Shown here piece after piece: positions 25,864-47,263 of a DNA stretch of 64,000 nt. This stretch comes from Deltaproteobacteria bacterium (GTDB lineage Bacteria > Desulfobacterota > Binatia > Binatales > Binataceae): positions 10,905-74,904 of the forward strand of contig PNBD01000044.1 of NCBI GenBank assembly GCA_003135855.1, given 5' to 3'. A model generated the notes under the pieces. That model was not told where the DNA came from and did not search any database. It saw nothing but the letters and a program-made list of their open reading frames with translations. A program made the position numbers and the translations under genes. Position 1 is the first letter of the stretch. The number at the start of each line of letters is the position of its first letter.

Positions 25864-27588
25864 TCAGGCGCTGGCGGTCGGTGCCGGCTGAGGACCGCGA
25901 ATCAGCTTACCCGGCATCGCCTCGGTCGGCTTGCCGTCTTGGAACGTAACCTCGCCGCTTACCACCGTGTACTTGTAGCCGTCGGCGCGCTGGATCAATC
26001 GGCGCCCGCCCGCCGGCAGATCGAACACCATCTGCGGCGGATGCAGCTTCAGGCCCGCGAGATCGATCACATTCACGTCGGCTTTCATGCCGGGCGCGAG
26101 CACTCCTCGATCGTGCAGTCCGTAGAACTTCGCGGTGTCGCTGGTCTGGCGCTTCACCACAAACTCGATCGGCAGACGCTCGCCGCGGCTGCGATCGCGC
26201 ACCCAGTGCGTCAGCAAATAGGTCGGCATGCTGCAGTCGCAGATGAGTCCGCAATGCGCACCGCCGTCACTGAGGCCGAGCGCCGTGATCGGATCGAGCA
26301 GCATCTCGCGCAGCGCGTCGAAGTTGTAGTCCGAGTAATTCGCGAACGGAGCGTACAGAAGTTCGCGGCCGTTGCGCTGCAGCATCATCTCGTAGGTAAG
26401 CTCCTGCGAAGTTTTGCCTTCACGCTGCGCGCGCGCCGCGATGCTGTCCTCGCGCTTGGGCTCGTAGTTCGGCGGATCGCCGAGCGCGAAATATTTGTCG
26501 AAGTTCGTCACGAAATAAGTCGTCATCCGATCCTTGACGCCGGGTTGATCGGCAAGGATTCGCGCGCGCGTTTCCGGCTCGCGCATCTTCGCAACGCGCT
26601 CGTCGATCGGCATATGCGCAATCTCCTTATAAGCCGGATGCGTGATGAATGGATGCAGCGAACTCTCGAGGCCCATCAGCATCCCGGTCGGACGCCCGGG
26701 AATTTGCGGCACCAGGTGCGCGCCTTCCGCATTGTATTTCCGCACGCGATCGAGCACTCGCCGAAATGCCGTTGGATCGTTATCGGTCTGCGCCATCGCG
26801 AACGTGATCGGCAGACCGGTTTCAGTCGAGAGCTTAATCATCCATTCCATCGTCGCGTCGGCGCCCACCATGTCCGACGCCATCTCGAACACGCCGTGAC
26901 CCACGTCGCCCATCGCGCGCCCGATTCCAAGCAACTCCGCCTCGCTGGCGAAGGTGCCCGGCACCAGTTCCTTGTTCTTGGCGCGATGCAGCATCGTGCG
27001 CGAGGTCGTGAATCCGAGCGCCCCGGCCTTCAGCGCATCGCGCACCAGCGCCGCCATCTTTGCGATGTCATCCGGCGTCGCTTCCTCGTTGTGCGCTCCG
27101 CGATCGCCCATGACGTAGGTCCTGAGCGACCCGTGCGGCATCTGTGCGCCGACGTCCAGCACGCGCTTCATCTTCTCGATCGCGTCCATGTACTCGGGGA
27201 ACGATTCCCAATTCCACTTGATTCCTTCCGACAGCGCGGTGCCCGGAATGTCCTCGACGCCTTCCATCAAGCCGATCAGGAATTCCTCCTGGCCGCGCTG
27301 GACGGGCGCGAAGCCGACGCCGCAGTTGCCCATGACGAGCGTCGTCACGCCGTGCCAGCTAGACGGACTCAAGTATGGATCCCACGTGACCTGACCGTCG
27401 TAGTGCGTGTGTATGTCGACCCAGCCGGGTGCGACTACCAGTCCGGTTGCGTCGATTTCGCGCCGTGCCGCGCCGGCTTTGCCGCCGGCACTTGTGATGA
27501 CGCCGTCATCGATCGCGATATCGCCGGTAAACGCGGGCGCGCCGGTGCCGTCAACGATTTTGCCGTTTCGAATTACCAGATCATGCAT
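25864..27588 (-). CDS. N-acyl-D-amino-acid deacylase family amidohydrolase (D-aminoacylase-like)
   Basis: [14 protein letters not shown]...[12 protein letters not shown] metal-binding motif, 574 aa. The long plus-strand ORF 25837-27696 is antisense. Confidence 0.8.
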
Positions 27589-27706
27589 CGCTGCGTGCTC
27601 CTCTCGTTCTACTCGCTTGGTCGATACGATGGATTCAATACCGCTATGCGAAAGGGCAGCCCGATTGCCGGACTGCCCTTCGCTTCATTCTTCTAACGAA
27701 AACAAA

Positions 27707-28789
27707 TCAGGCCGCTTCCGCCTTTATGCCGTTGAGCTTCTTCAGCTCGGGCATAACTTCCTTGGCGAACAGACGCAGGCTCTTCTCCGCGTCATCGTAC
27801 GGCATTCCCGCATAGCTGAAGACGCCGGTGTAGTGGTCGGCGCCGACCTTTTGACGGATGTCGTCGATCTTGCTGAAGCACATCTCGGGCGTGCCCCAAA
27901 CCTGGAGGTTCAGGAAGTACTCGATCGACGCGTCGGTGTTGCCGCCGAGGCTCTTCGCCATCTGCTCGTAGTACTCGTAGCCCTTGGCCTTGCCGAAATG
28001 TTCGCTCGCCATCTCGTAGTGACGCAGCGCAGTATTCCAGTAGCCGCCGATGTACTTCACCGCCATCTCGCGCGCGCGATCGGCGCTCTTGTCGCAGAAG
28101 GTCCAGCCCGCCGCGATCGTCGGCAGCGGCTCTCCGCCGTTCACTTGCTTGTAGATAGTGCGATACTCGCCCAGTTCCTGCGCGACTGCTTCCCACGGCT
28201 TCTGCGGAATTATCAGGATGCCGATGCCCAGCTTCGCCATGATCCGCGCCGACTCGGGCGAGACGGCCGCGGCGTAAGTGCGTCCCTTGAACGACTTGAA
28301 CGGCTTGGGCCGGATGTCGCGGCGCGGCTGCTTGATGTACTTGCCGTCGTATTCGCAGTAGCCCTTCTCGAGTCCCTCGATCAGCATCTCGGCTGATTCG
28401 ATAAAGCGCTCGCGCGATTCGCCGAGCGGTACGCGGAAGCCCTCGAACTCGATCCGCGCAAGCCCGCGCCCGAGGCCCAGGATCATGCGCCCGTTCGACA
28501 TGTGATCGACCACCGACACCTGCTCCGCGACGCGCATCGGGTCATGCCACGGCATCACGACCACCATCGATCCAAGCTGAATCGTCTTGGTGCGTCCCGC
28601 GTAATAGGTCAGGAACTGCAGCACGTCGGGGCACATCGTGTAGTCGTCGAAATGATGCTCGACGCTCCAGATCGAATCGAATCCGAGCGGCTCGTACATA
28701 TCGCCGATACGCAGCTCGCGTTGATAAACTTCGACGTCTGAACGTTCATTCATTGGGTTTTGAAAAATTACAGCGCCACCGACTTTCAT
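27707..28789 (-). CDS. LLM-class (luciferase-like) flavin/F420-dependent oxidoreductase
   Basis: TIM-barrel LLM pattern (GFDSIWSVEHHF, MILGLGRG). Confidence 0.8.
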   Translation of the reverse strand: MKVGGAVIFQNPMNERSDVEVYQRELRIGDMYEPLGFDSIWSVEHHFDDYTMCPDVLQFLTYYAGRTKTIQLGSMVVVMPWHDPMRVAEQVSVVDHMSNGRMILGLGRGLARIEFEGFRVPLGESRERFIESAEMLIEGLEKGYCEYDGKYIKQPRRDIRPKPFKSFKGRTYAAAVSPESARIMAKLGIGILIIPQKPWEAVAQELGEYRTIYKQVNGGEPLPTIAAGWTFCDKSADRAREMAVKYIGGYWNTALRHYEMASEHFGKAKGYEYYEQMAKSLGGNTDASIEYFLNLQVWGTPEMCFSKIDDIRQKVGADHYTGVFSYAGMPYDDAEKSLRLFAKEVMPELKKLNGIKAEAA

Positions 28790-28945
28790 CTATAAGGCCT
28801 CCGTGAGCCTGGAACTACGGTCGTCCATGTGGACGTACCAGTGTTGGCTTGAATAACATCACATACCAATCGTTCAATAATAAAGCAAAGCGCGGATTGT
28901 CGCCACGAACCGCGTGACTGCCGCGGGTTCGAGTAAGGGGTCGTT

Positions 28946-29425
28946 ATGATGAAAGGAAGCTGTCTATGCGGAGGCGTTCGCTTCGAAATCGAAAAAGCGG
29001 TCGGGCCATTCGAATTGTGCCATTGTCATCGATGCAGGAAAGTGTCGGGCTCGGCGTTCAGCGCGGGTCTCGGCGTGATGACGAAGGATTTTCGGCTTAT
29101 CGAAGGCGGGGAGTTGATCAGTACATACGAAGCGCCGATCTTACGCGAGCCGCCGCCGTATCGCAATTTTTTCTGCCGCCGATGCGGCTCGCCGGTGCCA
29201 AATCCGAAACCGGATTCAACATGGTTCGAAGTTCCGTCCGGTTCGCTCGATGACGATCCTGAGCTAAAAGCTGACAAGCACATCTTCGTCGAATTCAGAG
29301 CGCCGTGGTTTGAAATCGCCGACAATCTGCCACAGTACGATCTGAACGCGTTGCGAAAATTGCGCAGCGCCGGTAACGATCAGAAAGCTCAGAGTAAATT
29401 GCGCAGCACCAGGGACCCAGACTAA
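28946..29425 (+). CDS. GFA-family protein (glutathione-dependent formaldehyde-activating enzyme/CENP-V fold)
   Basis: GSCLCGGVRF plus CHCHRC, CRRCG zinc-binding Cys pattern. Confidence 0.8.
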   Translation: MMKGSCLCGGVRFEIEKAVGPFELCHCHRCRKVSGSAFSAGLGVMTKDFRLIEGGELISTYEAPILREPPPYRNFFCRRCGSPVPNPKPDSTWFEVPSGSLDDDPELKADKHIFVEFRAPWFEIADNLPQYDLNALRKLRSAGNDQKAQSKLRSTRDPD

Positions 29426-30582
29426 TGCGACGAGATATCTTCACCGAAGAACACGAAATGTTCCGCACCCAGGTGCGCCGCTTCGTCGAAACCGAAATCG
29501 CGCCGAAAGTCCCGGAGTGGAATCGCAACGGAATGAGCGATCGCGCGAGCTGGCGCAAAATGGGCGAGGCCGGGTTTCTTGGCGCCAACGCGCCCGCGGA
29601 ATACGGCGGCGCCGGCGTCGATTTTATCTACGACGCGATCGTGATGGAGGAAATGTCGCGCGTGCGCGCGCACGGCCTCATGATGTCGCTGCATTCGGAC
29701 ATCTGCATGCCGTACATCACGAGTTTCGGCAACGCGCAACAGAAAAAGCGCTATCTGCCCGGCACGATCAGCGGCGAGATTATCCTCGCGATCGCGATGA
29801 CCGAACCCGGCACCGGCTCCGACCTTGCCGCGGTCCAGACCACGGCGCGTCGCGACGGCGACAACTACGTCCTCAACGGTGCGAAGACCTTCATCTCCAA
29901 TGGTCAGATTGCCGACCTCATAATCGTCGTCTGCAAGACCGACCCGAAGGCGAATCCGCCGCATAAGGGCGTCAGCCTGATGCTCGTCGAGGCGACCAGT
30001 CCCGGCTTTGTGCGCGGCCGCAAGCTCGACAAGCTTGGACTGCGCGGTCAGGACACCAGCGAACTGTTCTTCGAAGACTGCCGCGTGCCGGTCGGCAACC
30101 TGCTCGGCCACGAGGGGCAGGGCTTCAAGATGCTGATGCAGAATCTCCAGCAGGAGCGGCTTTGCGTCGCGGTCGCATCGATCGCGAGCTGCCGCCGCAC
30201 CGTCGAAGATACGGTCGCATACTGCCAGCAGCGGCGCGCGTTCGGGCAGCCGATCGCCGAATTTCAGAATACTCAATTCAAGCTCGCCGAGATGATGACC
30301 GAAGTCGAAGTCGGCCAGGCGTTCGTCGATCGACTGCTGGTCGCGCACGTTCGGCACGACGAGATCGTCGCCGAGGTCAGCATGGCTAAATGGTGGACGA
30401 CCGATTTGCAGAAGAAGATTTCGAGCCAATGCCTGCAACTGCACGGCGGCTACGGCTTCATGATGGAGTATCCAGTCGCGACGGATTACGCCGATGCGGC
30501 AGTGCAATCGATCTACGCGGGCACCAACGAAATAATGAAGGTCATCATCGCGCGCAAGATGGGTCTGGATTCGCGCAAGTGA
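29425..30582 (+). CDS. Acyl-CoA dehydrogenase
   Basis: 385 aa with ACAD motifs (AMTEPGTGSD, YAGTNEI). TAATG overlap with the GFA stop. Confidence 0.9.
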   Translation: MRRDIFTEEHEMFRTQVRRFVETEIAPKVPEWNRNGMSDRASWRKMGEAGFLGANAPAEYGGAGVDFIYDAIVMEEMSRVRAHGLMMSLHSDICMPYITSFGNAQQKKRYLPGTISGEIILAIAMTEPGTGSDLAAVQTTARRDGDNYVLNGAKTFISNGQIADLIIVVCKTDPKANPPHKGVSLMLVEATSPGFVRGRKLDKLGLRGQDTSELFFEDCRVPVGNLLGHEGQGFKMLMQNLQQERLCVAVASIASCRRTVEDTVAYCQQRRAFGQPIAEFQNTQFKLAEMMTEVEVGQAFVDRLLVAHVRHDEIVAEVSMAKWWTTDLQKKISSQCLQLHGGYGFMMEYPVATDYADAAVQSIYAGTNEIMKVIIARKMGLDSRK

Positions 30583-30591
30583 ATCAGGCCG

Positions 30592-31935
30592 TCATGGAAG
30601 CATCTGCTCCGCAAGCTTCGCCATCGAAGCGCCAGCCTTCGCGCCGCAGAGGGTGTCGTTCACGTCACATTGAGGCGTGATACCCAGCGTGCGCTGCCGA
30701 GCGTTCAGATCGAAGATAGCTGCGTTTGTAGTACCATCGGGAGCACATCCGCATAGCTGACTCGCGCAACAACTGCATCCGACGGCGGCCTCGAGCTGGG
30801 CTATCGCAGCCAGGCCCTTGGCCGGACACTTGGATAATCCAGAGCAAGCGACAGATGTAAGGTCTCGGTCATTGCATTCGCCGGTGCATAGGGTGGCGTC
30901 ACAGGTGTAAGCGGATTCAATCTTAGCTTTGTCCTTACAGCTATAAGCTTTGCAAATTGCCTTACAGTCGGTGCCGGCTGGTACAGTCATCGTGTCATTG
31001 AAGAGCGGACACCCGTTGCCGCCGGGCGCGTCAGGGATACACGCCGTCAAGGGCGGTATCGTAGTGCCCTCTGGACTAAAGGCTGCGGACCATACAAGGT
31101 CGCCCCCCAGGGTGCACTGAGTCGCTGGGTCATCGAGGGTGACCCCAACCTGGTAAGGTCCGGTGTAAGTGGGACAAGAGCATGAGACTATACCTTTTGT
31201 GCCGGTCTTCTTACACGGTGCCGTCATGCATCCTGCGTAAGGAGCCTGCCCGCAGTTAGTTTGACCAAGCCCATTCGATGAAACGCAATCGAGGCTGAAA
31301 GTGGAGACGAGGTCAGCGCCGGGAATGAGTCTCTTTTGGTTTATCGCCCGGCAGACCGGCGCCTTGTTGACGTTTGCCGCACCAGTACATGCGCTCCCGT
31401 CAGCGCCGCAGACCTTAACCGTCTTTTTGTATATCTTGTAGTTGAGGATCGCGTTCATATCTACAAAGTAGGCGCCCCACGCGACTTCAAAGCAGTTGCA
31501 GTTAGCGAAGCGGCCATCTGCGCTAAGCGTGCAGGACAGGTCTTGGGAGCCCGTACTTGGACCGGAGTAGTAGCAGAGAGCATAGGGTCCACCTTTGCAC
31601 CAAACGAAGTTGGTAGGTGTCACCAGGATATCGCCAAAGGCGGGAATCGGGACGCAGTCAGCTCCCGAAGTGCAGGAACAGTTCGTTCCAGTGCATCCTG
31701 CGGTCAACTGAGTTGTAGCGTGCTTGGGATTGGTCCAGAACTTATACGAATTGGGGACGAAGTGTTTGCCCGTCGCGCTGCCGGATGCGACCGCATCGAG
31801 CGCTGATACCGCGTCAAGAGTTGCCGCGGTACTATTGAGCGCAAGGGTCGCAGCCAGATCGCCTGACATTGCTTTCGATGATAGCGTTGCGATCAAACAG
31901 ATACAGATAATCCAGGCGCGAAGAGTAATCGACAC
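30592..31935 (-). CDS. Secreted cysteine-rich protein of unknown family (about 36 Cys in about 420 mature residues)
   Basis: Signal peptide MSITLRAWIICICLIATLSS. Dense CxC/CxxC spacing throughout. Local GC and third-position GC are visibly lower than in the flanking genes. It is an isolated transcription unit. Confidence 0.6.
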   Translation of the reverse strand: MSITLRAWIICICLIATLSSKAMSGDLAATLALNSTAATLDAVSALDAVASGSATGKHFVPNSYKFWTNPKHATTQLTAGCTGTNCSCTSGADCVPIPAFGDILVTPTNFVWCKGGPYALCYYSGPSTGSQDLSCTLSADGRFANCNCFEVAWGAYFVDMNAILNYKIYKKTVKVCGADGSACTGAANVNKAPVCRAINQKRLIPGADLVSTFSLDCVSSNGLGQTNCGQAPYAGCMTAPCKKTGTKGIVSCSCPTYTGPYQVGVTLDDPATQCTLGGDLVWSAAFSPEGTTIPPLTACIPDAPGGNGCPLFNDTMTVPAGTDCKAICKAYSCKDKAKIESAYTCDATLCTGECNDRDLTSVACSGLSKCPAKGLAAIAQLEAAVGCSCCASQLCGCAPDGTTNAAIFDLNARQRTLGITPQCDVNDTLCGAKAGASMAKLAEQMLP

Positions 31936-32123
31936 AGTTATTCTCCCGTGAAATTTCTCTGGTCAAGGGCTCAACCTATCATGACATCGCGATCTTCGCT
32001 AATCATCTCGAGCAAAGCGAGGAATACCTGACGTCATCATCCGCTCTACATGGTCTTCCGGAATCTATTGCGAGTATCCTGCGCTCGAAATGAACAGATA
32101 AGTTGCCGCTGAGGCCATACCTC

Positions 32124-32156
32124 AAAAAAACGGCCGGCATCTGAAAATGCCGGCCG
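32124..32156 (-). terminator. Rho-independent terminator for the minus-strand thiolase operon
   Basis: Perfect 10-bp stem CGGCCGGCAT/ATGCCGGCCG with a 6-nt loop, followed on the minus strand by a 7-nt U-run (the A-run at 32124-32130 on the plus strand). Confidence 0.65.
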
Positions 32157-32188
32157 TCGAATTGTCTGCTGATCAATTCTCGGGAAGC

Positions 32189-33373
32189 TTAGCCGAGCTC
32201 GCTGCCCACCACTGAAACGAAGCTGACGCATCGACCCGGCGCGCCGCCGAGATTATGCGTCAGTCCGACCTTGGGATTGTTGAGTTGCCGGAGCCCTGCC
32301 TCTCCGCGCATCTGCAGCCACATCTCGTACATCATGCGCAGTCCTGACGCGCCGATCGGATGCCCAAACGACTTGAGGCCGCCATCCGGATTGACCGGCA
32401 GCTTGCCCTCCAGGTCGAAGAAGCCTTCCATCACGTCCTGCCATGCAGTTCCGCGCGGGCTGAAGCCGAGATCCTCGTACAGCACGAGCTCGGTCGGCGT
32501 GAAACAATCATGCACTTCGGCCATGCTGATCTGCTCGCGAGGATTGGTGATGCCCGCCTGCGCGTACGCATCCTTGGCCGTCGCGACGACTTCGCGAAAC
32601 GTGGTGAAATCGTAATCCTGCGACAGCGGCCCTTCCGCCGGTCCCGCGATGAACGACAGCGCCTTTATATAGATGGGATTCTTGCAGTACTTGTGCGCAT
32701 CTTCGGCCCGCACCACGATCGCCGCCGCCGAGCCGTCCGAGACGCCCGAGCAATCCATGATTCCGAGCGGATCCGCGATCTTGGGCGAGTTCCGGATGGT
32801 CTCCATCGAGACTTCCTTCTGGAACTGAGCCTTGGGATTTTTCGCGCCGTTCTTGTGATTCTTCCACGCGATGCGCGAGAGCACTTCCTTGCCCTTGTCG
32901 GCATCGAGTCCGTACTTCTTGAAATACGCAGGCGCGAGCAATGAGAACGAGGCCGGCGCCGTCATCGTGCCGTGGGTGCCGTCGTTCGGCGGAACGTTCG
33001 ACACCAAGCCCGAGTAGCCCGAGTCCTTGAGCTTCTCGACGCCGATCGCCATCGCGACGTCGAATGCGCCCGACGCGACCGCGTAGCAGGCCTGGCGCAG
33101 CGCTTCCGAACCGGTCGCGCACATATTTTCGACGCGGGTCACCGGCTTGTACTGAATTTTGAGCGGCTCGGAGAGCGTCAGCCCCGAGATACCGGAGGCC
33201 ATGGTGCCGAGCCAGTAGGCGTCGACGTCCTTCGGCTCCAGTCCGGCCGACTCGTACGCCTGGTAGGCGGCGTCGACCAGCAAATCGTCCGGGCCCTTGT
33301 CCCAATGCTCACCGAACTTGGTGCATCCCATGCCGATGATTGCGACGCGGTCTTTGATTCCTCTGCTTGCCAT
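32189..33373 (-). CDS. Thiolase-like protein (SCP-x/archaeal-type thiolase domain)
   Basis: 394 aa. N-terminal RVAIIGMGCTKFGEH and C-terminal thiolase motifs (NPDGGLKSFGHPIGASG). Confidence 0.85.
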   Translation of the reverse strand: MASRGIKDRVAIIGMGCTKFGEHWDKGPDDLLVDAAYQAYESAGLEPKDVDAYWLGTMASGISGLTLSEPLKIQYKPVTRVENMCATGSEALRQACYAVASGAFDVAMAIGVEKLKDSGYSGLVSNVPPNDGTHGTMTAPASFSLLAPAYFKKYGLDADKGKEVLSRIAWKNHKNGAKNPKAQFQKEVSMETIRNSPKIADPLGIMDCSGVSDGSAAAIVVRAEDAHKYCKNPIYIKALSFIAGPAEGPLSQDYDFTTFREVVATAKDAYAQAGITNPREQISMAEVHDCFTPTELVLYEDLGFSPRGTAWQDVMEGFFDLEGKLPVNPDGGLKSFGHPIGASGLRMMYEMWLQMRGEAGLRQLNNPKVGLTHNLGGAPGRCVSFVSVVGSELG

Positions 33374-41494: not shown

Positions 41495-42958
41495 CTAGTA
41501 AGCTCCCATGTTGGTGCTACCAGTGGTAAGCCCCGGCAGACCTGCTCCGATACATGGGCTGCCGCTCAGCAGATGGAAATCGTCGGCCGCCGCGTTGACA
41601 TAGAGCGGATCGACGCCGTCGAGATCGTGCGGTCCTTTCGGACCACCAACCGGACCACGGCTGGCGCCATCGTCGTTGTAGTCCCAGGTCGGAGTCGTGC
41701 AGTTGTGGCCGTCGTAGTAGGTGCTCGTGGTATCGAGAATGTTATTGCGCACGTCGAAGGTGACGTTTCCGCAGGAAGGATCTCCACCGGTCACCACCGC
41801 GGACTGGGTGCCCAGGTAAGCGGTGTTGTTGTACACCCGACAGGTCGAAGATACGTTGGTACCAAAGCCGCCCCATTCACACTCGAACCCGTTGGGAGCG
41901 TTGTACACAACGTTCTGCTGCCAAGTGATATCGCCTGCCGGTATTTGCGGATTCTCGAAGTAGAATGCCGAGCCTTGCGAAGATCCGGCTCCATTGACGG
42001 TGTTACCCTTTACCAGCGCCCCGACTGACGACTTTACGTCGATACAATTGTGAAGCCATCCCGAGCAATAGTTCCCTTGTATAAGTGGCGCGCCAGTGTC
42101 CTTGTGCACCTGAATGCAGTTGTGGCCGCCGCAGGCTGTTACCGAGTTGTTGAGAAACTGTACGCCGTCGGCCGCTGCGTTTTCGTCGAGAAACATAAGC
42201 TGGTTGCTATAAGTGCCGTCGTCGGTGGTCGGGCCGGTATCGTGGATGTTCATATTCTGGACGACAATACCGGGCATACCGAAGCTGCCGCCGGCATTCT
42301 GGTAAAACAGGACACCATAGTGTGAGGTATTGCGGCACTCGAAACCATCAATCGTGATGTAAGACCACAGCGGGCTACTACCGCCGCCGGTTGCTCTCGC
42401 ATAGAAGCACGCAGTCGCGCCGCCTGACCTTCCGCCGCCGTCTATCACAGGGAGGGCGCCGGTGCCGTAATTGCCAATCACAATGGGATTGCCCGCAGCG
42501 CCGTTGACGTGGGTCGGCATCGTGATTCCACCGCTCCAAGTGCCACCACGTTCGAAGAGAAGGGCAGTTCCCGCCGTGGCACCTGCAAGCAGGTTCTGGG
42601 CTTTCGCGAGGCTCCAACAAGGTGCGCTTTGCGTACATGGGCTTGAGTCAGATCCAGAAGGTGAAAAGTAGTAGGTGGTCGCCGGTCCCGGCGTACCGGT
42701 TGCAGTAGGCGTTGGCGTGGTCGTCGGTGTGGGACTTGGAGCAGCCGTTGGAGTAGGTGACGGTGTCGTCGTCGGTGTGGGACTCGGACTAGCAGTTCGA
42801 GTAGGTGTTGGCGTACGTGTGGGAGTAGGAGGCTTACCTTTGTTGGGTTTGGATGACGGGACAGCGCCAGCAGTGCCGCTGAGCGCGAGCAGCATCGCTC
42901 CGAGGAGTACACCGATGACGCGCGCGTCGAAGTGGCCGATCTTGTACCTGTGTCGCAT
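41495..42958 (-). CDS. Secreted right-handed parallel beta-helix (pectin-lyase-fold) protein with Pro/Thr-rich linker
   Basis: Signal peptide, ~60-aa (PTPT)n linker, then NxxxxGN-type beta-helix repeats. Confidence 0.7.
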   Translation of the reverse strand: MRHRYKIGHFDARVIGVLLGAMLLALSGTAGAVPSSKPNKGKPPTPTRTPTPTRTASPSPTPTTTPSPTPTAAPSPTPTTTPTPTATGTPGPATTYYFSPSGSDSSPCTQSAPCWSLAKAQNLLAGATAGTALLFERGGTWSGGITMPTHVNGAAGNPIVIGNYGTGALPVIDGGGRSGGATACFYARATGGGSSPLWSYITIDGFECRNTSHYGVLFYQNAGGSFGMPGIVVQNMNIHDTGPTTDDGTYSNQLMFLDENAAADGVQFLNNSVTACGGHNCIQVHKDTGAPLIQGNYCSGWLHNCIDVKSSVGALVKGNTVNGAGSSQGSAFYFENPQIPAGDITWQQNVVYNAPNGFECEWGGFGTNVSSTCRVYNNTAYLGTQSAVVTGGDPSCGNVTFDVRNNILDTTSTYYDGHNCTTPTWDYNDDGASRGPVGGPKGPHDLDGVDPLYVNAAADDFHLLSGSPCIGAGLPGLTTGSTNMGAY

Positions 42959-46069: not shown

Positions 46070-47263
46070 TTGAAAACTTTAATCAAAGTAAGTACATTAA
46101 AATCTATGGACGCACGGGAATTCACGAAAGAAATGACAGGACAATTGGTGCGGATTCCAAACGGGCCACCCGATATTCAAATTGGCTTTGTTCCTAATCC
46201 GTTGCCTCCGAAATGGAGCTGGCCCGAACGATTGTGGTCTTCGCTGGTCGCGGCGCGATCTGCTCTCGCCAGTCTTGATGGCGTCGGGAAGCACCTCCCG
46301 AATCCAGAAATTCTTATTTGGCCGCTTCAGCGCAGAGAAGCGCAGCTTTCATCGCAACTTGAAGGAACGATTACGAATCCGCAGCAGCAGGTGCTGTTCG
46401 AGGCTGATCCGAAATACCCAATATCGCCATCCGATCCAGCCAACGCCTATCGAGAGGTTTTCAATTACAGAGAGGCATTGCGGCTGAGACTCGATGGCAG
46501 AAATCAGTTGCCGTTATCTCTCCGATTGATGCGCGATCTACATACGGTGCTGATGGACGGCGTTAGAGGCTCGAATCAGCAACCTGGCCAATTCAGAACC
46601 ATACAGAATCAAATCGGCAGACCGGCGCGATTCGTGCCTCCTCCGCCCTCACACTTACCCGAAGCTCTCGATGAACTGGAGAAATATCTTCATGTCAAAG
46701 ATTCTCCTTTTGATCCATTGGTCAGGGCTTTTCTCGTTCATTACCAGTTCGAGACCATTCATCCTTTCTGCGATGGCAATGGACGAGTTGGCAGACTTCT
46801 TCTGTCGGTTATGATCGCGGAGTGGTGCGGTCTTTCGAGTCAGTGGCTATACATGAGTCCGTTTTTCGAGAAAAACAGAAACAATTATATGGATTTGCTT
46901 AAGGGCGTCAGCACGCATGGAGCCTGGGACCTGTGGATCGAGTTCTGTTTAGATGGCGTAATTTCCCAAGCCAAAGACACGGAAAAGCGTTGCGATAGAT
47001 TGCTGCAACTACATCGGGATTTTCACAGTCGCCTAAAGGGAGGGAGCGTTCGATTGTCGCAGCTAGTTGATAACTTGTTTCAGAACCCGGTAATCACCGT
47101 ATCGAGGTATTCCAAACAATTCGTAGTTTCATATCCGACTGCGCGATCCGACCTCAAAAAACTTCACCAGTTGGGAATCGTGCAACCGCTGGATAGCGTT
47201 GATGTTATTACCTACTACTGTCCTAGCATTTATATGGTTACTTACGAGGACGTATCTGAGTAG
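46070..47263 (+). CDS. Fic-family protein (AMPylation/Fido domain)
   Basis: HPFCDGNGRVGRLL is the Fic motif HxFx(D/E)GNGRxxR. AT-rich promoter region. Noticeably lower GC than the surroundings. Confidence 0.85.
   Translation: MKTLIKVSTLKSMDAREFTKEMTGQLVRIPNGPPDIQIGFVPNPLPPKWSWPERLWSSLVAARSALASLDGVGKHLPNPEILIWPLQRREAQLSSQLEGTITNPQQQVLFEADPKYPISPSDPANAYREVFNYREALRLRLDGRNQLPLSLRLMRDLHTVLMDGVRGSNQQPGQFRTIQNQIGRPARFVPPPPSHLPEALDELEKYLHVKDSPFDPLVRAFLVHYQFETIHPFCDGNGRVGRLLLSVMIAEWCGLSSQWLYMSPFFEKNRNNYMDLLKGVSTHGAWDLWIEFCLDGVISQAKDTEKRCDRLLQLHRDFHSRLKGGSVRLSQLVDNLFQNPVITVSRYSKQFVVSYPTARSDLKKLHQLGIVQPLDSVDVITYYCPSIYMVTYEDVSE

Follow-up and report, generated by a model that had tools for sequence, protein, structure and literature searches.

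The gene at 30592..31935 on the minus strand of a 64,000-nucleotide stretch from a Binataceae genome (contig PNBD01000044.1, positions 10,905 to 74,904; the whole stretch is called the window below) very probably encodes an exported two-module protein whose cysteines are all held in disulfides and which belongs to an undescribed family. The best overall explanation adds that the gene works as a stand-alone unit and that its product has a binding role, and this complete reading is given a probability of roughly 0.55. A Sec signal peptide, predicted from the sequence in a copy that carries no lipobox, would lead to export as a soluble protein, in which a disordered linker of about 35 residues would be followed by a beta-rich N-module (residues 98-290) and a helical C-module (residues 296-432). 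With essentially all 36 mature cysteines in disulfides and the pair C217-C354 linking the modules, the product may be a highly stable protein of the periplasm, the cell surface or the medium that binds or recognises a ligand without catalysis. Its function would reside mainly in the N-module, and the gene would have spread patchily, partly by horizontal transfer. The gene and the parts of its product are as follows.

30592..31935, minus strand: complete coding sequence, 447 amino acids plus stop, from the open reading frame (ORF) listing and translation; predicted exported, disulfide-rich two-module protein
31867..31935, minus strand: signal peptide, residues 1-23 (MSITLR, then the hydrophobic stretch AWIICICLIATL, then SSKA/MS)
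31765..31866, minus strand: disordered linker rich in Ala, Ser and Thr, residues 24-57 (predicted local distance difference test score, pLDDT, below 50 for residues 18-61)
31645..31764, minus strand: N-terminal cap, residues 58-97, with an HFVPNSxxFW motif and an optional mini-insert of four cysteines (C81, C86, C88, C94)
31066..31644, minus strand: N-module, residues 98-290, mainly beta, 15 cysteines, pLDDT 83-95 in the AlphaFold2 model
30640..31065, minus strand: inter-module segment and C-module, residues 291-432 (the module itself 296-432), all-helical, 17 cysteines
30592..30639, minus strand: non-conserved C-terminal tail, residues 433-447 plus stop, where pLDDT falls to 56-73

The first-pass annotation of this DNA had described a protein of 447 residues with a clear signal peptide and about 36 cysteines in its mature part. 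The ORF matches exactly, all six cysteine motifs quoted at that time occur in the translation, and the cysteines number 38, of which two fall in the signal peptide and the other 36 in residues 81-430. Cysteine accounts for 8.5% of the residues; for 42 other proteins predicted in the window the figure is 1.1% (standard deviation 1.1%, maximum 4.6%). From an alignment of 65 close homologues (A1), an AlphaFold2 model was obtained that reached a mean pLDDT of 78.7 and a predicted template modelling score of 0.75, with 324 residues at a pLDDT of at least 70; low confidence was limited to the linker (residues 18-61) and two loops.

Export is predicted from the N-terminus, where hydropathy peaks at 3.2 over residues 7-18 and the model places a helix at residues 4-16. 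Judged by rule (a charged n-region, an h-region of 10-15 residues and small residues at -3/-1), this is a Sec type I signal, without a twin-arginine motif. No lipobox of the form [LVI][ASTVI][GAS]C occurs in the window's protein, in which C11 follows I-I and C13 follows I-C-I, so that position -1 is never G, A or S. A hydrophobic N-terminus was found in 103 of 107 near-full-length homologues, which makes export a family-wide trait, and a lipobox-like motif is present in about 40 of the 107 (LFGCK in P0016 and IFGCG in the ORF of locus L010, for example). The linker varies across the family from about 30 to 84 residues and is rich in proline in the lipoprotein forms.

The folded part divides into its modules. 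H58, F59, P61, F66 and W67 of the cap are invariant in A1. The N-module is marked by the signatures ALCYYSGP, VDINAILN, APVC, STFS, YAGCMTAPC, CxCP and WSAA, and the C-module, whose helices at residues 324-426 are modelled at a pLDDT of 88-98, by CxPD, CPL, TCDxxLC and ExxxxCSCCASQxCGC. Most homologues stop one to five residues past LCG(431). The full motif set of the family (31 core cysteines with ALCYYSGP, YAGCMTAPC, CxCP, WSAA, CxPD, CPL, TCDxxLC and CSCCASQxCGC) is present in the window's protein and is invariant or nearly so both in A1 and in an alignment of 26 diverse members (A3). The N-module also occurs by itself, as many homologues of 250-340 residues cover only residues 98-290, among them a Pyrinomonadaceae lipoprotein with a linker rich in Thr and Pro (L010, 7674-8591). 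A scan of 149 diverse family representatives for accessory domains found the N-module fused to a C-type lectin domain (Lectin_C), a FIMAH tail and an IPTL-CTERM sorting signal, in one representative each, and all three of these domains are extracellular.

A periodic domain structure had also been suggested earlier, to be checked by self-comparison. Profile alignment with hhalign of the two halves of the N-module, of the two halves of the C-module and of the N-module with the C-module gave probabilities of at most 4%, and the suggestion was dropped. Membership of the repeat-built cysteine-rich classes (EGF-like, Myxococcus Cys-rich repeat, DUF4215, DUF11) was likewise rejected, with no periodicity and no Pfam or NCBIfam repeat match. 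Apparent alternative C-terminal modules among the representatives of 50%-identity clusters proved to be mostly frameshifted translations; Arg/Pro-rich nonsense C-termini are seen in many of these representatives (among them P0128, P0138, P0141, P0145, P0153 and P0170), and frameshifted translations from metagenome assemblies inflate the apparent diversity of domain architectures. A homologue from the Acidobacteriaceae (L008, 8001-9025) aligned by tblastn in two segments, residues 98-293 and 299-431. This split is possibly a frameshift, in a pseudogene or from a long-read assembly error.

Cysteine statistics were drawn from the alignments A1 and A3. Across the 65 sequences of A1, 31 cysteines are invariant, and in all but one of these sequences the folded part carries 32, 34, 36 or 40 cysteines. 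Within the mini-insert, C81 and C94 are found in 26 of the 65 and C86 and C88 in 14-15, and the partners of each pair always co-occur. Perfectly correlated losses in A3 couple 81 with 94, 86 with 88, 217 with 354, 333 with 370, 387 with 390 and 135 with 430. C217 and C354 are missing together in 11 of the 26 diverse members, 333-370 in six, 135-430 in three and 387-390 in two, and the losses of 135-430 are confined to haptophyte-type copies, all relatives of each other. Of the proteins that consist of the N-module only, the two inspected (P0164 and the L010 ORF) have 14 cysteines and lack C217, in keeping with a bond from C217 to C354 of the C-module. From these patterns we infer that essentially all 36 mature cysteines would be paired, in 16 core disulfides plus two in the insert, 18 in total, and that at least one bond, C217-C354, would staple the N-module to the C-module.

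The same cysteines could in principle be thiolate ligands, in a metal binder or store of the metallothionein or Csp type with Cu(I), Zn or Cd bound by CxC, CxxC and CC motifs. Such motifs, and CxxxC, are dense in the protein, above all in the helical C-module; one homologue comes from a Methylococcus metagenome-assembled genome (MAG), and methanotrophs use helical copper stores lined with cysteines, some Csp proteins being exported in these organisms. Csp1, Csp3 and the bacterial metallothioneins resemble the window's protein in their density of cysteines, and the Csp proteins are helical like its C-module with 17 cysteines. However, an even number of cysteines in 64 of 65 sequences and their strictly paired loss point to disulfides rather than thiolate ligands, the signal is of the Sec and not the Tat type, and no match to a Csp or metallothionein was found in sequence profile or fold. 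Metal binding through thiolates is thus very improbable, and pairing of the cysteines in disulfides is the preferred interpretation.

The gene had been called an orphan, a label that does not survive database searches. A word-indexed search of 5.8 billion clusters returned at least 1,300 proteins (as 90%-identity clusters) at E<=1e-3, ranging from 87% down to about 50% identity over the mature part, all of them "hypothetical" and none with a Pfam domain. An exhaustive phmmer search of 1.84 billion 50%-identity representatives gave 301 matches, 58 of them at E<=1e-30, and a pattern scan of JGI metagenomes confirmed at least 464 relatives. The 90%-identity cluster of the window's own protein includes MDO8431311.1 / WP_304820568.1, a "hypothetical protein" of Candidatus Binatus sp. 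All prokaryotic matches that bear a name are MAGs, with members assigned to Binataceae, Terriglobia, Korobacteraceae, Acidobacteriaceae, Pyrinomonadaceae, Thermodesulfobacteriota, an uncultured "delta proteobacterium", Betaproteobacteria and Methylococcus. Copies from Binatota, Acidobacteriota and proteobacterial MAGs share 50-55% identity, and identity to the copies of haptophyte type, from Diacronema lutheri and from an unattributed relative in a metagenome, is 30-37%.

The family thus extends to two protist lineages and a giant-virus bin as well as several bacterial phyla. Besides a protein of the haptophyte Diacronema (Pavlova) lutheri, it includes CAE8591983.1 of Polarella glacialis, encoded in no fewer than 12 exons of a 272-kb scaffold, for which contamination by bacteria is no explanation. 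In this dinoflagellate (A0A813DZN9, "uncharacterized protein") the N-module shows the same cysteine and motif pattern, and the C-terminal half differs. Foldseek against BFVD gave one significant match, A0A481YSG1 of Marseillevirus LCMAC101 (E=1.4e-10, 34% identity, template modelling score 0.64), an "uncharacterized protein" of 200 residues that corresponds to about one module; it comes from a metagenomic bin, which may be contaminated. No family member was found among PLSDB plasmids or INPHARED phages or by pattern scans of IMG/VR, and a search for eukaryotic relatives with the N-module of P0219 found no match, probably a limitation of the word-indexed search.

The earlier statement that no family could be recognised was borne out. 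The window's protein has no match in Pfam or NCBIfam even at E<=10, and none in PADLOC or PHROGs at E<=1. Distant members fared no better, the libraries of the Pfam type giving no family assignment and only the one-member accessory domains among the 149 representatives; P0135, a family member with a long C-terminal extension, has a sub-threshold DUF11 match (E=0.12). In sequence searches of the PDB, neither the single sequence nor two family profiles nor an N-only member produced anything above noise, and in the fold comparison of the AlphaFold2 model with the PDB neither module had a neighbour, nor did the model resemble a known catalytic fold. No record was found in the literature on the family's motifs or on cysteine-rich proteins of Binatota. 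The homologues in databases (Candidatus Binatus, Polarella, LCMAC101) are true members, yet none has been named, functionally described or structurally solved. No known family is matched, codon usage is atypical and conservation is broad yet patchy. The family and fold appear to be new, with novelty tested against the PDB and BFVD and not against AFDB, ESM Atlas or HHpred.

Several known groups share single traits with the family. Saposin-like proteins, plant non-specific lipid-transfer proteins and oomycete elicitins are likewise extracellular helical domains with several disulfides, and the CC and CxC motifs of the window's protein are reminiscent of the 8-Cys motif of the plant proteins; membership of these lipid binders was considered and rejected. 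The chlamydial proteins OmcB and OmcA and the surface proteins with DUF11/CLIPPER repeats are also bacterial envelope proteins with many disulfides, whereas the window's protein has no DUF11 or other repeat domain and consists of two modules that are not repeats. The family is of one type with the dark-matter families of metagenomes collected in NMPFamsDB, sizeable and constrained families without Pfam coverage that come mostly from MAGs and metagenomes. Against that background it is remarkable for being large, for 16-18 conserved disulfides, for members in eukaryotes and a giant-virus bin and for the absence of a fold neighbour in the PDB.

Base composition had been read as clearly lower than in the flanking genes, and this is correct. 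The gene has a GC content of 0.565 and a GC content at third codon positions (GC3) of 0.612, against a GC3 of 0.76-0.82 in the adjoining genes (about 0.77 in the flanks) and a window median of 0.74 (standard deviation 0.07, 54 candidate genes). Elsewhere the GC3 of homologues tracks the host genome, with 0.47 at a locus of 43% GC and 0.84-0.89 at loci of 69-70% GC, and the Binatus copy departs from this trend. Recent acquisition of a lineage-restricted orphan from a foreign source would account for this deviation and for the lack of a curated family match, the more so as the next-closest clade (62-69% identity) sits in a genome of 43% GC, which fits a donor of lower GC. However, the at least 1,300 homologue clusters extend across phyla and domains, and contig L031 (WNFC01089149.1) of a related Binatus is collinear with the window over 27478-32130 at 84-89% nucleotide identity. 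As this block holds the gene itself, the acyl-CoA dehydrogenase (ACAD) gene, a GFA-family gene and a luciferase-like monooxygenase gene, the gene must have been at this locus since before that divergence. A search for empty sites added no information, as all contigs with an identical ACAD protein carry the gene as well. Low GC is therefore no sign of a recent arrival, and an origin as a newly acquired orphan is hardly credible.

In comparison with the 77%-identical copy at locus L025, dN/dS (the ratio of nonsynonymous to synonymous substitution rates) is 0.151/1.114, about 0.14, which identifies a real gene under purifying selection. At the loci of the next relatives, L025 and L030, only the coding sequence resembles the window. 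Conservation is broad yet patchy, and some copies lie beside transposases: the L018 copy is near a transposase, and the L023 and L024 copies are near phage recombination and terminase genes. The overall picture is one of long residence in some lineages with occasional horizontal transfer and no recent arrival in the window. Around the homologue at L025 (5428-7810 and 10057-13378), Transposase_20 and DDE_Tnp_1_4 genes are found on one side and phage-like genes for a CI-like repressor, a ParB-like protein and N6/N4 methylases on the other. At L023/L024 (9601-11640), a gene of the Ice_binding family (PF11999) lies about 2-4 kb downstream of the homologue, with genes for phage ERF, YqaJ and terminase upstream. 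Polarella glacialis is a polar sea-ice species, and the overlap with this neighbour is noted as a coincidence.

Gene neighbourhoods were compared by gene calling at eight places and by clustering of ORFs over 17 and then 68 loci, and over the 68 loci no neighbouring family recurred beyond the synteny of single lineages. Two arrangements were seen repeatedly. In about 12 soil contigs (L042, L044, L046, L051, L053, L054, L062, L064, L065, L070, L071 and L084) the gene lies between pheA/hisC and accA, with intergenic gaps of 283 to 2588 bp. As these neighbours are 88-93% identical to each other, the contigs represent one lineage with stable vertical inheritance. In about nine loci (L083, L085, L093, L102 and L105-L108) the gene has a divergent DUF2092 gene upstream, encoding a LolA-like periplasmic protein, and a convergent Ysc84-like gene downstream, whose product is a secreted protein of about 235 residues with a weak Ysc84 match. 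These contigs have 42-56% GC, and the neighbours are 48-61% identical among themselves and lie on the opposite strand to the gene. L105 and L108 appear to share further gene order downstream, as judged by ORF sizes and order. Because of the strand of the neighbours and this shared order, the arrangement is taken as lineage synteny rather than an operon, although a functional link may exist. The gene would thus work alone, without dedicated partner genes.

A secreted, cysteine-rich product of a solitary gene could be a toxin or antimicrobial effector directed against fungi, protists or competing bacteria, comparable to the cysteine-rich defence proteins of eukaryotes. The patchy and partly mobile distribution, with copies near transposases and phage genes, and the range over bacteria, protists and a giant-virus bin would suit such a function. 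Antagonistic effectors usually diversify, whereas this family is highly invariant and under strong purifying selection (dN/dS 0.14). In addition, no immunity or secretion-system gene was found adjacent in the 68 loci, the protein itself has no PADLOC or PHROG match, about 40 of the 107 homologues are predicted lipoproteins and so tethered to their own envelope, and some lineages keep the gene at a stable position among housekeeping genes, between pheA/hisC and accA. A role in antagonism is therefore improbable.

The role is argued from the N-module, which would be the functional core of the protein because it is found alone, as a linker-tethered lipoprotein and fused to a C-type lectin domain, and it is also combined with surface-sorting signals. 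Its only polar residues that are invariant throughout the family are T172, S211, T238 and S283; none of its invariant positions is a His, Lys, Arg, Asp or Glu, and the only invariant acids, D302 and E382, sit in the dispensable C-module. This distribution leans towards a non-catalytic protein, and a role in binding or recognition is tentatively proposed on these sequence patterns. Alternatively, the protein could be a new extracellular enzyme, such as a hydrolase or oxidoreductase acting on an environmental polymer, in which the disulfides would only provide stability outside the cell. Conservation (50-55% between phyla and 30-37% to the haptophyte-type copies) is unusually high for a secreted protein that is not an enzyme; D302, D346, E382, S211, S283, S388, T172 and T238 are invariant or nearly so, as is H58 in the 65 close homologues, and secreted enzymes, too, are typically tethered by lipoprotein anchors or linkers and encoded by genes that stand alone. 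Yet the N-module occurs alone without D302, D346 and E382 and has no evident invariant set of acid, base or nucleophile, H58 is missing from distant and eukaryotic members, and the model is unlike any known catalytic fold. Catalysis is thus considered unlikely, though less so than the role as a toxin, and a binding protein is favoured, itself with a probability well short of even.

Several points weigh against the reading of an exported, disulfide-rich binding protein. No experiment or annotated homologue bears on its function, and the binding role is argued from weak, indirect lines. The identity of about 50% across phyla and the 16 non-cysteine residues that are invariant family-wide would fit an enzyme as well, and the fusion to Lectin_C is known from a single cluster representative. 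The disulfide pattern was derived from the sequences and not from the geometry of the model, with the pairs 135-430 and 387-390 resting on few, related sequences. Moreover, the signal peptide was judged by rule and not by SignalP, and the novelty of the fold was tested against the PDB and BFVD only, without a profile-profile search of Pfam, PDB or ECOD.

The local setting of the gene in the window agrees with its description as a solitary unit wedged between an acyl-CoA dehydrogenase and the terminator of a thiolase operon. It is flanked by the ACAD gene on the plus strand and by a pair of genes for a thiolase and a ChsH2-like protein on the minus strand. The ORF spans 447 codons from a GTG start codon, and this start is supported because the homologues P0001 and P0003 keep the same N-terminal signal-peptide sequence. 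Two further elements were read at its upstream side.

31942..31947, minus strand: Shine-Dalgarno-like GGGAGA, read from the sequence, 6 nucleotides 5' of the GTG
32129..32158, minus strand: intrinsic terminator of the thiolase/ChsH2-like operon, a 13-bp stem (8 G-C pairs) and then a run of T

The gene shares its strand with the thiolase operon and starts 190 nucleotides downstream of the operon's terminator hairpin. The ACAD gene is convergent with it, and their stop codons are 9 bp apart (30582-30592). Terminator and convergent neighbour together define the gene as a separate, solitary transcription unit. No terminator-like hairpin was found between the two stop codons, so that the two transcripts would overlap or terminate inside each other. 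A sigma-70-like promoter was not found upstream of the gene. The search for cis-regulatory RNA in the same region with Rfam gave only a sub-threshold match at 32122-32191 on the minus strand to the enterobacterial small RNA STnc240 (26 bits against a gathering score of 55, E=0.55), which overlaps the terminator hairpin and was taken as chance. No paralogue of the gene was found within the window or inside any of the homologue loci.

Other genes of the window also depart from its typical composition. The GFA-family gene (glutathione-dependent formaldehyde-activating-like) at 28946-29425 on the plus strand has a GC3 of 0.62 and overlaps the ACAD start codon by a single base, 29425, with which the one ends and the other begins. 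Another secreted protein that has no Pfam match, of 487 residues, is encoded at 41495-42958 on the minus strand with a GC3 of 0.64, below the window median; it has a signal peptide, a long linker rich in Pro and Thr and a region rich in Gly, Asn and Thr that contains 13 cysteines and resembles a parallel beta-helix. At 46070-47263 on the plus strand lies a Fic/DOC family gene (Fic_N and Fic, with a weak DeoR helix-turn-helix match), whose GC3 of 0.51 is the minimum of the window and marks it as probably mobile or foreign.

More than a few disulfides are uncommon in a bacterial protein, which makes this family an unusual one: its members, of about 400 residues, have 16 invariant disulfides, are under purifying selection in Binatota, Acidobacteriota and several proteobacterial lineages and are shared with dinoflagellates, haptophytes and a giant-virus bin. 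For proportion, uncharacterised families number hundreds of thousands: over 100,000 families of 100 members or more are listed in NMPFamsDB (PMC10767849), and a survey of uncultivated taxa reported 413,335 novel families (bioRxiv 10.1101/2022.01.26.477801). By its disulfide density, tight conservation, spread across domains of life and lack of a PDB neighbour for a confident model of about 400 residues, the present one is an above-average dark-matter family. As neither module has a neighbour in the PDB, the protein is a good target for structure determination, and it could also provide a highly stable scaffold and a means of testing the oxidative folding capacity of uncultured soil phyla. The chance is a little short of even that the family represents two previously unseen extracellular folds with 16-18 disulfides that have moved among soil and sediment bacteria, marine protists and giant viruses and that serve a constrained extracellular function without partners, such as ligand recognition. 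A disulfide family so widely held under purifying selection implies a conserved extracellular activity that current annotation misses.

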